Assembly: GCF_002854065.1 (NCBI RefSeq)
Contig: NZ_CP024147.1
Source of the DNA: Escherichia coli
GTDB taxonomy: Bacteria; Pseudomonadota; Gammaproteobacteria; Enterobacterales; Enterobacteriaceae
Strand: one strand, 5' to 3'
DNA length: 64,000 bases
Of this stretch, positions 21,824-61,628 are shown piece after piece; position 1 is the stretch's first letter, and every line of letters starts with the position of its first letter. The notes beneath the pieces were generated by a model, which saw nothing but the letters and a program-made list of their open reading frames with translations, was not told the origin of the DNA and ran no database searches. The position numbers were made by a program, and so were the translations under genes.

Positions 21824-21899
21824 GGCCCCTTAGCTCAGTGGTTAGAGCAGGCGACTCATAATCGCTTGGTCGCTGGTTCAAGTCCAGCAGGGGCCACCA
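21824..21899 (+). tRNA. ileX: tRNA-Ile (anticodon CAU, lysidine-type); island integration target
   Basis: 76 nt cloverleaf: acceptor ggcccct/aggggcc, anticodon loop ctCATaa, T-arm ggttcaagtcc, 3' CCA encoded; position between mug and yqjH. Confidence 0.85.
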
Positions 21900-21912
21900 G
21901 ATATAGCAAAGG
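21853..21912 (+). repeat. Left copy of 60-bp direct repeat (tRNA 3' half plus 13 bp) bounding the island
   Basis: Identical 60-mer gactcataatcgcttggtcgctggttcaagtccagcaggggccaccagatatagcaaagg also at 61569-61628. Confidence 0.8.
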
Positions 21913-21998
21913 GTTAGCTAATAAATCAGCTAACCCTTTTTCTTTTGCCTTTGAATTGGGTCAGGTAATGGGTCAGGTAAGCTTTTTCTCCATCTGAC

Positions 21999-22844
21999 TC
22001 AGATGGCTGATAGTTGCCCCGGATAATACTTCGCAATGATGTCATTTAGCCGATCAACCAGTTCTGGTTTTCTGAACGTGATATGCGCGGAGCCCTTCTT
22101 AAAGTATCTGATGCTGAACATCTCATCTTCATAGCAGGCTTTGCCCTGAACGGAGCGGATGTGATCATCCAGCCGAATAATGATATTTTCCCGGCTGTCG
22201 GGGATCGGTTTGCCGCTGAACAGGTGCAGCATTCTTTCCAGGTCGGCAAGTCGATCTGCCTGTTGCCCGGTGATAAGATGCAATCCCCACCGGTCCCACC
22301 TCACCAGATTGTTGACGATAATTTTACTGCCAAATTTACAGGGGCAATTGGTTTTGTAATCCCAGCTCAGTCCCCTGAAGACGTTGATGACCCCACGCTC
22401 AAACACTTCATCCTTATTCTGGTGTAGTTGCTCAAACGTACTCAGTATATTCTCTTCACTGATTTCCGGAAAATTATCGTACTCCAGTGACCGGTACCAT
22501 GTACCACGGGCCTGTGCATCCATTAAGGAAAGCATCCCTGAACGTTGCATCAGGTCACGCCAGATTTCACGGTCAAGGTTGCGGGTGATGGCTTTCATTG
22601 CCGTTTCAGGTTTCTCCATCAGCCAGCAACCGCAGCGAAAATCCTGTTTCATGGCCCAGTCCGGAGCAGTTTTACCTCCAATACTTTCTGTCATTGCTGA
22701 TATTTCAGCCAGTTGCCGGATAAGTGTGTCGATTTGCAGCAGTGTGCTCTTTCGTACAGCCAGAATGTGGCGGATACTGGTTGAGCAGATAACGTCCGTA
22801 TGCCCGTTGACCACTTCCGGACGGGCGATTGTGATGCCTGACAT
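21999..22844 (-). CDS. Island-associated hypothetical protein (possibly DUF4942-like)
   Basis: 281 aa ORF at the tRNA-proximal island end; family name from memory only. Confidence 0.45.
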   Translation of the reverse strand: MSGITIARPEVVNGHTDVICSTSIRHILAVRKSTLLQIDTLIRQLAEISAMTESIGGKTAPDWAMKQDFRCGCWLMEKPETAMKAITRNLDREIWRDLMQRSGMLSLMDAQARGTWYRSLEYDNFPEISEENILSTFEQLHQNKDEVFERGVINVFRGLSWDYKTNCPCKFGSKIIVNNLVRWDRWGLHLITGQQADRLADLERMLHLFSGKPIPDSRENIIIRLDDHIRSVQGKACYEDEMFSIRYFKKGSAHITFRKPELVDRLNDIIAKYYPGQLSAI

Positions 22845-22940
22845 AATCGGTTTTCCTTTCTGTTTATAAATGAAAACGCCAGCCGTATTCAGGCTGGCGT
22901 CGGGGGAATGAAGTGTGGTGAGAAAGATAATGAGTGAAAC

Positions 22941-23138
22941 TCACCGGTTCAGGTGCTGAAACTGCAGATGGCGCAGAGTTCGGACATCCTGTCGCGCCTG
23001 TTCGATACAGGGCAACAGTGCTGCCGAATCCGTTTTATCCTCATCGTTGTCAAAGATAATTTCCGATTCGCAGTCAATATTGTCCTGCAGCCACGCAATC
23101 AGAATATCCAGCGCCGTTTCTGTGGTTAATAATTTCAT
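22941..23138 (-). CDS. YeeW-like small protein (65 aa)
   Basis: MKLLTTETALDILIAWLQDNIDCESEIIFDNDEDK...; the longer 189-aa ORF-track frame looks like an artefactual upstream extension. Confidence 0.45.
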   Translation of the reverse strand: MKLLTTETALDILIAWLQDNIDCESEIIFDNDEDKTDSAALLPCIEQARQDVRTLRHLQFQHLNR

Positions 23139-23475
23139 CCAGTGTCTTTTGTCCTGATTACCAGTCGAAAGTGGGGAACCCCGGCAGACATTCTGCGCTG
23201 GCGTCCAGATGAATGAGACTGACGCCATAACGCCGGGTGAGTGTGACAACCAGACGACGGAACGTTTTTGACAGGCCCAGGCGCTTAAGCCGCAGAACCG
23301 GGTATGACCACGCATCGGTACGTAACAGATAGCCGCTACCTGTGAAATGAATCCATTCTGATTCACCAACGTCACTGGTCTGGTGTGACAGCGAGTGCAA
23401 CCAGGCGTTGTCCGTTTCCGTGATATGTGCGGTACTGCAGCGTATGCCGGCAAGGGTTGCAAATGGCGGAGGTGT

Positions 23476-59243: not shown

Positions 59244-59329
59244 ATCACTGAGGGGATAACAGCCCGGTTATCCCCTGTTTGTTCTGCTTCAGGTTGCCAG
59301 AGCTCTAGGAACACGAGGCAATCGGCAAA

Positions 59330-59926
59330 TTATGCGGCTTTTCCATTAACAGATTCGGCCACAAGAACGACAGTGTGTTTGTTTCGCTCAGGATGTTCAC
59401 TCCAGATTTCTGATTCCGGGATGCTTTCCCCGTCATAACTGATCCGTTCGCCATCAAACGGGTAATACCGTGCGGAATCAGTATCTAAAATAAACACCTT
59501 CAGATTCGTTGAACGACGCGCAATATGCTGCCAGAGAGCTTTTCCTCCTTCATATTGCTCGTTATCACTTAATAGTACAACGCCCGCTTTTGTGACTATC
59601 GTTTCATAAACAAACGTTGCAAGACCAACATCGCGTACAGCTCCATCGACAACAATCCCTTCAATCTGAGCAACATCCTGTTCTTCCCAGAATTTCTGGA
59701 CAAACACGCCTTCAAGTCGGGGACGACGCTGAAGCTCCAGAGTGGCAACAACCTTATGGCGAACATCACCATCAATAACAGAAGGTGCAGCTTCGATTAC
59801 CGCAGCAAACGGAGTCTTTGGATCCCAGATGATCTGGTAAAGCACGCCCTGAATAGTTACTCCATCCAGTATCGAAAAACGACGGGCTACAGTAGCAGGG
59901 GAGTAAGACATTGGAATTACAGCCAT
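59330..59926 (-). CDS. Hypothetical protein, ~198 aa, no recognisable domain (candidate novel cargo gene B)
   Basis: ORF-track frame begins with GTG at 59956; first ATG at 59926 (MAVIPMSYSP...); co-oriented with and just downstream of the integrase; convergent with gene A (86-bp gap). Confidence 0.5.
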   Translation of the reverse strand: MAVIPMSYSPATVARRFSILDGVTIQGVLYQIIWDPKTPFAAVIEAAPSVIDGDVRHKVVATLELQRRPRLEGVFVQKFWEEQDVAQIEGIVVDGAVRDVGLATFVYETIVTKAGVVLLSDNEQYEGGKALWQHIARRSTNLKVFILDTDSARYYPFDGERISYDGESIPESEIWSEHPERNKHTVVLVAESVNGKAA

Positions 59927-60055
59927 TTTAGAATCCCCTCTGAGTAATACAGGCACGAAAATTTACCTCAATAATTATAGTAAACAATACCAGAGCCAGG
60001 CGCATCAACAATACTCATCAATTGTACTCAAGTCGTACAACGATCAGGAACGCCC

Positions 60056-61372
60056 TCACCTTCTACCAAACAGATTGACAACATTATTGCCTGTTTGCTG
60101 TTGATAGTTATTAACCCGGTCTTCCCAGATCTCAAGTGCTCTGCGTTTTTCTGGCAAATAATCGTATCGATCATAATGTTTTGAACTGACATCGTTCAAC
60201 GCATGATTTTGAATACGATCGCGGATTTCCTTACTGATTCCAGCTTCTCCCATTAACGTTTTACAGGTCCGACGTAAGTCACGTGCTGTAAAAATTTTAA
60301 AGTCAGGATTACAAGCCCGGAAATACATGATAGCGCGAGCCAGACTGTCCGTACGAACCGGACGCTTACCATTAGTCGAAAGCGGGAAAATGTAAGGGCT
60401 CGATTTTTCTTTTGTTAACTCCTGCACACAAGATAATTCCTGTAATGCTGATTCAGTCAACGGTATCAAATGTTCTCGCTTATTTTTAGAGACATCCGCA
60501 GTCACCAGCAGCGTTTTTTGCTGAAAATCAACATCACACCACTGACTGGCGATCATTTCGAAGGGACGTTGCCCCCCGGTATAGATACAGAATCGGATCA
60601 AATGTTGCATCAATAATCCAACGTTGGTTGCTTCAGCAAAATGTTCCATTAGAAAACGCAACTCTTCGAGTGTCAGCCAGGTGTCACCGACTTTTTCAGC
60701 AGATGACTGTTTCGGTATCACTGATACCGGATTGGCCTCCAGCCCAAAAGTAATCCCTACACTTGTGTTCATCGGATCGTTATCAGCTTTCAGACCATAG
60801 TTAAATGCAGCCATCAGGTAAGAACGGATCCGGTTAGAGTGAACCACTGCACCGCGCTGAATGATCCCGGCCAGGATATGTTTAATCTGTCCGGAAGTCA
60901 CATCTTTAGCTTTAGTCTCACGGGGGATCACTGTATAGCATTCATTTTCAAGGCGTTTCAGAACATCCTGCCATGTTCTCTTATTATCAATTTTCATTTT
61001 GTTAACATAACCATGAATCAATGCTTCAAATGAGCCCTGTGATTGATGGAGTTGTATCCGCTGCTGTTCTGCAAGCTGTTGTCGCTCCAGTTCTGTCTGG
61101 GGATCCTTTCCTTCAATGAGCCAGGCACCATACTTTTTTGCCAGTTCATTCGCTGTAGCCAGTTTCATCTCAGGCCATATACCCAATTGAATGAATCTTT
61201 CTTTTTTCCCTTTTTCCACGTAATAGCGGAAATAGAAAATTTTGCTGCCAGAAGACTGAACTTTGATGCCAAGTCGTCCAGTGCCACGTTGAGAACTGTT
61301 GCTCCAGACATAGAACGATGTCTTTTTTGCTTTCAATGCTCGGATAGCTGTTTCAGTTAGATTGACGGCCAT
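60056..61372 (-). CDS. P4-type tyrosine integrase at the distal island end
   Basis: 438 aa; C-terminal catalytic domain with ARDLRRTC and HALNDVSSKHYDRYDY; adjacent to the att repeat. Confidence 0.9.
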   Translation of the reverse strand: MAVNLTETAIRALKAKKTSFYVWSNSSQRGTGRLGIKVQSSGSKIFYFRYYVEKGKKERFIQLGIWPEMKLATANELAKKYGAWLIEGKDPQTELERQQLAEQQRIQLHQSQGSFEALIHGYVNKMKIDNKRTWQDVLKRLENECYTVIPRETKAKDVTSGQIKHILAGIIQRGAVVHSNRIRSYLMAAFNYGLKADNDPMNTSVGITFGLEANPVSVIPKQSSAEKVGDTWLTLEELRFLMEHFAEATNVGLLMQHLIRFCIYTGGQRPFEMIASQWCDVDFQQKTLLVTADVSKNKREHLIPLTESALQELSCVQELTKEKSSPYIFPLSTNGKRPVRTDSLARAIMYFRACNPDFKIFTARDLRRTCKTLMGEAGISKEIRDRIQNHALNDVSSKHYDRYDYLPEKRRALEIWEDRVNNYQQQTGNNVVNLFGRR

Positions 61373-61568
61373 AGAACCTCTTTTCTAAACCAGTAACAAT
61401 CAAAATAACTCGTAAATTTGGGTCAGGTAATGGGTCAGGTAACGATCGTACAATGGAGAAAAAACGGAACCAAGCGGAAACAGAAGCAATTACATAATTA
61501 CTTGATTATAAACAATTAATAAAACAATTACGAACAAACCAAAACAATATAGAATGGACTTGCCTCAT

Positions 61569-61628
61569 GACTCATAATCGCTTGGTCGCTGGTTCAAGTC
61601 CAGCAGGGGCCACCAGATATAGCAAAGG
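61569..61628 (+). repeat. Right copy of the 60-bp direct repeat (partial tRNA 3' half) bounding the island
   Basis: Identical to 21853-21912; the tRNA 5' half is absent here. Confidence 0.8.

Follow-up and report, generated by a model that had tools for sequence, protein, structure and literature searches.

A probable CP4-6-like integrative island in the ileX tRNA gene of Escherichia coli and its apparently captured pga block

The 64,000-nucleotide stretch of Escherichia coli DNA analyzed here (contig NZ_CP024147.1 of assembly GCF_002854065.1; hereafter the window) contains a 39.7-kb segment that a preliminary description, made from the letters of the sequence, had taken for a mosaic genomic island inserted at a tRNA-Ile(CAU) gene. 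The window holds a single tRNA gene, at 21824 to 21899 on the plus strand, with the anticodon CAT (CAU in the RNA) according to ARAGORN, and Rfam concurs. Because RefSeq annotates an identical gene, flanked by mug and nfeF (as yqjH is now called), as tRNA-Ile, this gene is ileX, which encodes the lysidine-dependent tRNA-Ile2. The segment is flanked by core genes: rpoD-mug-ileX lie to its left and nfeF (yqjH)-nfeR (yqjI)-aer to its right, all of which but rpoD the preliminary description had named. Each end is marked by one copy of a perfect 60-nt direct repeat (21853 to 21912 and 61569 to 61628, both read on the plus strand), found by repeat search and direct string comparison; the starts of the two copies lie 39,716 bp apart, and the identity cannot be extended by a single base at either side. 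Starting in the anticodon stem, at tRNA position 30, the repeat consists of 47 nt of tRNA sequence up to the CCA end followed by 13 nt of downstream sequence. The left copy, the attL core, is thus part of the intact gene, and the right copy, the attR core, contains a displaced ileX 3' fragment (61569 to 61615, tRNA positions 30 to 76) that lies downstream of the intact gene in the same orientation. A 25-nt probe from the 3' end of the tRNA, allowed up to three mismatches, matched only at the two repeats in the window and had no match in 100 shuffled sequences. The repeats, their coordinates and the identity of the tRNA had all been given exactly. The ileX gene has been regenerated: chromosomal in its 5' part, it lies from position 30 on inside the block of identity shared by island and host.

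That the segment is an insertion and no fixed part of the chromosome, as had been proposed, is borne out by empty sites. A 409-nt query, in which the left flank and tRNA were joined to the sequence to the right of the second repeat, found an uninterrupted mug-ileX-nfeF junction in 4,955 of 5,426 complete E. coli genomes, in many of them with 100% identity. The exact mosaic of the window was present in no complete genome, and the best coverage of its right half was 76%. The left core flank has a G+C content of 53.5% and the island as a whole one of 46.5%, with strong heterogeneity inside it: 54% in the block with the toxin and Ag43 genes, 44% in the hsd and pga segments, 41% in the backbone next to the integrase and 37% in a gene for a GGDEF-domain protein.

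Beside attR lies the gene for a tyrosine integrase of 438 amino acids (aa), here called Int1 (60056 to 61372, minus strand), with an Arm-DNA-bind_3, a central (Phage_int_M) and a catalytic (Phage_integrase) domain, which we take as the integrase of the tRNA-Ile island. A second integrase in the island, Int2, is only 21% identical to Int1; when the two are aligned, R269, K296, R367, H390 and Y400 of Int1, as read from the alignment, are kept. The reading frames of Int1 and of an AlpA-type excisionase gene nearby are intact. The DNA around the two cores has features expected of the attachment site of such an enzyme. Within the 64 kb there are exactly four copies of the 11-mer GGGTCAGGTAA, against 0.6 expected by chance, and they form two tandem pairs with a spacing of 12 bp, one pair at each end of the island. 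The left pair (21958 to 21980, plus strand; P' arm) is situated about 100 bp inside attL, and the right pair (61420 to 61442, plus strand; P arm) between the Int1 start codon and attR; they are candidate arm-type sites for Int1. A match to the consensus for integration host factor (IHF), AATCAAGTAATTA, lies between the P arm and the core (61495 to 61507, minus strand), and its consensus positions are kept in all three diverged islands that were compared. The island of strain CX04 has an Int1 gene of only 76% identity and largely scrambled DNA from this gene to the core, yet the block TTTTGGGTCAGGTAATGGGTCAGGTAACGAT is unchanged despite the divergence of its surroundings. Conserved repeats and an IHF-like site are the phylogenetic footprint that arm-type and bending-protein sites would be expected to leave. 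The preliminary description was right about the repeats and the distal position of the integrase and had missed the arm-type repeats. A terminator-like hairpin is also present at each end. Its first bases, AAAGG, are the final five of the repeat, and it closes with CCTTT, after which comes TTCTTTT. Inside, the two hairpins are unlike: that at attL (21908 to 21939, plus strand) is island DNA and that at attR (61624 to 61651) native DNA; the island therefore restores the 3' half of the tRNA together with a terminator, which replaces the native one.

Int1 together with its P arm was found in 454 of the complete genomes (about 8%), always on the chromosome. The junction of Int1, repeat and nfeF was contiguous in 359 genomes, and a corresponding junction of Int1, repeat and the sequence downstream of ileY, a paralogue of ileX, in 98 genomes; ileX and ileY together account for essentially all Int1 copies. 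The insertion at ileX thus stood as first described, and ileY is a second target that had not been noticed. We read the ileY arrangement from strain BS90R-A, in which the island adjoins the glaH-gab cluster, and took the right end from strain CUPF12. At the left junction, the 5' half of ileY (GGCCCTT…) is joined to an ileX-type 3' half (…AGGGGCCACCA) with the 13-nt tail GATATAGCAAAGG, and at the right junction the native end of ileY is found (…AAGGGCCACCA, then AATCATT). As the tail travels to the ileY attL while attR stays native, it must be part of the attP of the element, and the junction sequences confine the crossover to the initial 37 bp of the identity block, with the anticodon loop as the most probable place. 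Insertion at ileY generates a hybrid tRNA, in which the acceptor-stem pair 6-67 changes from U-A to a U6·G67 wobble. An ungapped alignment of 35,832 bp between the island at ileX in strain 571 and that at ileY in BS90R-A has 37 mismatches (99.897% identity). Such near-identical islands at two loci indicate site-specific and recent insertion, as homologous recombination through the flanks would be unable to yield them. The interpretation of the repeats as attachment sites is hence upheld by an island at ileY with a hybrid attL and a native ileY 3' end at attR. In strain PCN061, an ileX island with this same backbone at either end has a sugar-utilization cluster in the middle; judged from such comparisons, the Int1 islands are a family with conserved ends and variable cargo. 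In strain LHM10-1, the whole left half of an ileY island has been lost, including ileY, by an IS1-adjacent deletion that also truncates a neighboring amylase gene.

Our results suggest that the 39.7-kb segment is a CP4-6-like integrative island which was placed in the 3' half of ileX by its own integrase, Int1, and whose mosaic interior is decaying; we put the probability of this interpretation at roughly 85%. The circular form would carry an attP composed of the Int1 gene, two GGGTCAGGTAA arm sites, the IHF-like site, the core (tRNA positions 30 to 76 and 13 nt), the island terminator and two further arm sites. Recombination with the chromosomal gene would then produce a complete tRNA with terminator at attL and displace the native 3' fragment to attR, beside Int1; the same integrase family also uses the near-identical paralogue ileY. 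Excision presumably needs Int1 and the AlpA-type factor. The interior comprises a conserved backbone of toxin-antitoxin, antirestriction, Ag43 and GTPase genes, a restriction-modification (R-M) locus cut by the insertion sequence (IS) IS1, and a captured block bounded by IS1 and IS903B.

Several observations weigh against an active element. Int1 has an arginine (Arg364) where most such enzymes have a histidine, the first of box II (H-x-x-R). Relaxase, conjugation, secretion, capsid and virion genes were all absent from the annotations of near-identical islands, with no search made for oriT, and spread from cell to cell must therefore use other vehicles. The five IS copies, the truncated hsdR and a DUF5983 pseudogene suggest that this copy is decaying and could be immobile, and its activity is deduced from sequence and population data. 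These same observations (the IS copies and damaged genes, the absence of transfer genes from those annotations and the unusual arginine) would favor the view that the segment is a fixed and immobile relic with fossil repeats, which has spread vertically or by homologous recombination through its flanks. We consider such a relic improbable. Its repeats would not be expected to be perfect over 60 bp, nor the Int1 and AlpA frames intact; islands that are 99.9% identical over 35.8 kb occupy both ileX and ileY; the hybrid tRNA can arise only from site-specific recombination; and the arm sites are under visible constraint. This evidence argues for an active family, although it falls short of proving that the copy in the window is itself active.

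The genes next to Int1 bear on whether the element is better described as a P4-like phage satellite or a defective prophage than as a plain genomic island. From left to right, this backbone encodes an inovirus-Gp2 or YagK-YfjJ family protein (53238 to 53801, minus strand), a helicase-like DUF3987 protein of the YfjI family (54677 to 56128, minus), an N-terminal fragment of a second DUF3987 protein (56359 to 56586, minus), the AlpA-type excisionase or transcriptional regulator (56692 to 56940, minus; phrog_2790, E = 4e-23), a conserved protein of 543 aa (57612 to 59243, plus) and a conserved protein of 208 aa (59330 to 59956, minus) belonging to phrog_7522, a family of unknown function. The DUF3987 fragment is a 75% repeat of the start of the yfjI-like gene, as part of a 295-nt direct repeat (55839 to 56133 and 56315 to 56609; 75% identity), and the pair is kept in all related islands. 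The 543-aa protein had no match in Pfam, NCBIfam, PADLOC or PHROGs. It is kept in every Int1 island examined and is transcribed opposite to the other backbone genes. A P4-type integrase, AlpA, the DUF3987 helicase-like and inovirus-Gp2-like proteins and the membership of the 208-aa protein in a phage family are what a satellite would have. However, the annotations of near-identical islands list neither capsid, tail or lysis genes nor psu, sid or delta, the nine right-hand proteins that were scanned matched only PHROG families of integrases, excisionases, helicases or primases and proteins of unknown function (not every small open reading frame was scanned), and the rest of the island consists of adhesin, toxin-antitoxin, R-M and pga genes. 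A satellite or prophage origin is accordingly very unlikely.

Between the R-M locus and this backbone lies a block of about 12 kb (37029 to 49254) that contains pgaDCBA, the GGDEF gene, a serX-downstream repeat, a serX 3' end and a serX-island integrase. Its left breakpoint is an IS1 copy (copy a; 36261 to 37028, minus strand) and its right breakpoint an IS903B (49255 to 50311, plus), neither with a target-site duplication; in contrast, the simple insertions of a second IS1 (copy b) and of IS3 have such duplications. The genes pgaD, pgaC, pgaB and pgaA (37086 to 43266, minus) are four intact open reading frames. The GGDEF-domain protein (45824 to 47191, plus) is DgcT-like, with 79% nucleotide identity to dgcT of K-12. 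Between pgaA and this gene is an IS5-like element (43750 to 45724, minus) split by IS1 copy b (43942 to 44709; 8-bp duplication TGTCATCG). The composite insertion precedes the pgaA start by 484 bp and the GGDEF start by 100 bp, was not found in any related island examined, and may alter expression of the cyclase gene.

Directly after the GGDEF gene, the sequence at 47194 to 47300 (minus strand) matches the repeat unit found downstream of serX in K-12; beyond it, there is an abrupt change to the DNA upstream of Int2. We regard the matching sequence as a relic serX attachment junction, made up of an RtT-like serX-downstream repeat with a terminator and the last 14 to 15 nt of tRNA-Ser(GGA). Downstream of serX in K-12 are three to four tandem copies of a repeat of about 181 bp, every copy with the last approximately 20 nt of the tRNA and a terminator; they resemble the RtT repeats of tyrT, with the RefSeq label "RtT sRNA" (small RNA). 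RefSeq applies that label also to the sequence upstream of Int2 in relatives. No RtT match was obtained in the window; at this place, Rfam searched up to an E value of 1 gave only weak, terminator-driven look-alikes such as MicC and the Thr leader, and an RtT RNA at this position was rejected; the sequence seems better described as a serX-downstream repeat. Int2 itself (47470 to 48678, plus; 402 aa) is a P4-type tyrosine integrase of serX islands and has no connection to the tRNA-Ile repeats, and a DUF3987 gene fragment of a serX-island backbone (48901 to 49254, minus), cut by IS903B, completes the block. The native serX locus of strain NCCP15648 shows the same order of dgcT (followed there by IS3 and ycdU), repeat, integrase and convergent DUF3987 gene, and the junction of repeat and Int2 was covered to at least 80% in 1,259 genomes. 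By these comparisons, the block is a captured junction of chromosome and serX island and not ordinary island cargo. The preliminary description had correctly listed a pga/dgcT module and a second integrase, and had missed that they form such a junction.

The presence of two P4-type integrase genes, and the known occurrence of tandem arrays at tRNA genes (PMC4383910), might suggest that two independent islands were inserted successively at ileX, but this is the least probable of the readings considered and we reject it, as it calls for a third tRNA-Ile 3' segment where the window has two even with three mismatches allowed, and as Int2 is preceded by the serX 3' end and downstream repeat and by no part of ileX, sits in the junction that is the normal end of serX islands at their native locus, and has chromosomal pga-dgcT DNA, not island sequence, on its left.

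The origin of the block can be narrowed by the pga allele that it carries. The island operon is 82% identical to that of K-12, which rules out a copy of the resident E. coli operon. It is 99.3 to 99.5% identical to the native locus of strain SCPM-O-B-8794, which reads efeB-phoH-pgaDCBA-GGDEF-serX-ghrA-ycdX. At the same native position in strain 54, identity is 98.3% for the pga operon and only 90.2% for the GGDEF gene. The core genes beside pga in these two strains (efeB and ghrA-ycdZ) are about 90 to 91% identical to those of K-12, far beyond normal E. coli variation. Hence the source was either an Escherichia lineage that is divergent or a block acquired by introgression, and these two "E. 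coli" records would themselves be members of a cryptic Escherichia lineage or contain a large introgressed segment. Alleles of the island type occur in about 105 of the 5,426 genomes and those of the K-12 type in 4,234. A plasmid origin was rejected, since the nearest entries in a plasmid collection were the ordinary 82% E. coli allele, in records resembling pieces of chromosome. Strain LHM10-1, tried as a carrier of the allele at the native locus, was likewise discarded because it holds the ileY island with the IS1-mediated deletion of its left half mentioned above. A donor scan with the GGDEF protein over one genome per species, by a peptide-pattern method that intermediate relatives would escape, gave one close locus, that of SCPM-O-B-8794, the others being unrelated GGDEF domains with 31 to 44% identity.

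The native locus of strain NT1N31, in the region 2.76 to 2.81 Mb, reads phoH, DUF2726 and Int2 (same protein accession) without pga. The large serX island of this strain carries hsdMSR-IS1, McrBC and an O-antigen-like glycosyltransferase cluster; homology and IS copies that would serve an exchange between islands therefore exist. The sole pga match found in NT1N31 is in its ileX island, and in several of the strains with the composite island only one pga match is found. The block may thus have been brought in by IS- or homology-mediated exchange between islands, probably through double recombination in which IS copies or backbone genes common to both islands were the partners. In this scenario, which we regard as evenly poised between right and wrong, the tRNA-Ile island would have made mobile cargo of a chromosomal operon that is normally fixed: pgaDCBA, the dgcT-like gene and the serX scar would have been lifted from a divergent Escherichia by exchange with a serX island and would then have moved between ileX and ileY and between strains. 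Two points count against this account of the block, namely that it is defined only at its two ends and that the search of one genome per bacterial species gave just one near-identical native locus.

The left part of the island starts with a series of minus-strand genes that contain the elements of a CP4-type backbone. After genes for a DUF4942 (21999 to 22844) and a DUF957 protein (22941 to 23138) follow a DUF5983 homologue interrupted by an in-frame stop (23161 to 23646), a CbtA-family toxin (23643 to 24020; 60% identical to YkfI of K-12), a CbeA/YeeU-family antitoxin (24109 to 24462; 60% to YafW), a DUF987 protein (24545 to 24763), a RadC-like protein with a JAB domain (24850 to 25326), an antirestriction protein (25341 to 25826; 72% to YafX), a YafZ-like DUF932 protein (25917 to 26735), a full-length Ag43/Cah autotransporter adhesin of 948 aa (27066 to 29909) and a YeeP/YkfA-like GTPase (30283 to 31152). 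Relative to strain 571, the window lacks a 640-bp segment with a hypothetical gene of 214 aa between cbeA and DUF987, at 24491 to 24498. Rfam reports a match to "IS102 RNA" (71.5 bits) at 29928 to 30164 (minus), directly upstream of the Ag43 gene, which appears to be a conserved regulatory or leader region of flu-type genes. The type I R-M locus that follows has an intact methyltransferase gene, hsdM (31416 to 32972, plus), an intact specificity gene, hsdS (32969 to 34168, plus), and an hsdR (34290 to 36260, plus) that is cut at about residue 673 of 1,038 by IS1 copy a; in strain 571, the same hsdR is of full length and is followed by the same IS1. Because hsdM and hsdS are intact and hsdR is cut, the system is predicted to methylate, probably, and not to restrict.

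To the right of the captured block and IS903B is an IS3 (51062 to 52319, minus; 99.9% identical to IS3D of K-12) with a 3-bp duplication, AAC. The 101-aa open reading frame immediately to its right (52371 to 52676, plus) encodes the C-terminal remnant of an SNF2 defense helicase of the ZorD/DpdE type (PADLOC DpdE, 4e-63; ZorD, 2e-60), which we read as the leftover of a lost defense system. The content that the preliminary description had listed (CbtA/CbeA, RadC-like and antirestriction genes, Ag43, hsdMSR, pgaDCBA with a GGDEF gene, two integrases and five IS copies, these being IS1 twice, IS5-like, IS903B and IS3) was all recovered. Its type I R-M locus stands with the qualification that hsdR is truncated, and the stop in the DUF5983 gene and the splitting of the IS5-like element by IS1 are corrections of detail.

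Comparison with known elements supports the assignment to a familiar type. In the Islander database, a regenerated tRNA gene and a displaced fragment mark the ends of an island, and anticodon-centered sites are the commonest class (PMC4383910); the segment shows an intact tRNA, a displaced 3' fragment, a tyrosine integrase inside and empty sites in relatives. In CP4-6, at thrW of K-12, the intact tRNA is followed by toxin, antitoxin, DUF987, RadC-like, antirestriction, DUF932 and GTPase genes all on the minus strand, as here; after these come cargo riddled with IS copies, a YagK/Gp2-like gene and the distal integrase gene, intF. The annotated element also begins within the tRNA, at position 28, and its toxin, antitoxin and antirestriction proteins are 60 to 72% identical to those of the island. 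The two differ in tRNA target and in cargo, CP4-6 being without Ag43, hsd and pga. The claim that the integrase lies at the distal end beside the partial tRNA copy, as in CP4-6, agreed with the K-12 annotation and describes a resemblance of layout only. Int1 was rejected as an orthologue of IntF, with which it shares 24% identity, and only over 172 residues of the catalytic and C-terminal domain (E = 8e-6); at this level of similarity we place the two in the same superfamily.

In CP4-57, at ssrA, an intA-alpA-yfjI-yfjJ module is followed by GTPase, antirestriction, RadC-like, antitoxin and toxin genes, and CP4-44 carries yeeP-flu(Ag43)-yeeR/S/T/U/V. AlpA drives IntA-dependent excision of CP4-57. 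The island has YfjI-family, Gp2/YfjJ-family and AlpA-type genes and a pair of Ag43 and GTPase genes; for the AlpA-YfjI-YfjJ (Gp2) genes, the matches are at the level of families only (phrog_2790; "YfjI family" and "inovirus-type Gp2" in PGAP). Unlike the integrase of CP4-57, which lies by the intact target gene, Int1 lies by the displaced fragment. The Int2 junction corresponds to the integrase-proximal end of serX islands at their native locus, as in NCCP15648; islands at serX/serW of E. coli and Shigella include the SpLE1, OI-43/48 and SRL-PAI types; unlike in those islands, the junction is here away from serX, having moved with about 10 kb of neighboring chromosome into the tRNA-Ile island. 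The SRL pathogenicity island is listed at serX/serW (PMC7545054), and ileX is recorded as a site of mosaic pathogenicity-island modules, including an Ag43 module (PMC5539235, PMC7545054). LAA pathogenicity-island modules are likewise found beside ileX; the LAA marker genes hes, iha, lesP and pagC were not seen in the island.

Islands in tRNA genes of E. coli are textbook material, and the island as such adds little to what is known of them. What the analysis adds is the definition of an attP architecture, the dual targeting of ileX and ileY, and the presence of the pga/dgcT/Int2 block, a chromosome/serX-island junction, as apparent cargo. The cleanly delimited attP of an integrase family specific for tRNA-Ile2 could serve as a dual-site integration tool. 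The relic serX junction would document how a biofilm operon, with genes for poly-N-acetylglucosamine (PNAG) synthesis and a diguanylate cyclase, became site-specific mobile cargo, and the capture of pga bears on differences in biofilm capacity among strains. If such exchange is general, recombination between paralogous CP4-like islands would let genes beside one tRNA hotspot be transferred via another.

Two SIB antitoxin RNAs, of type I toxin-antitoxin loci, lie in the core chromosome on the left side of the island, at 976 to 1124 and 1351 to 1500 (minus strand), together with a naRNA4 element at 9420 to 9490 (minus strand).

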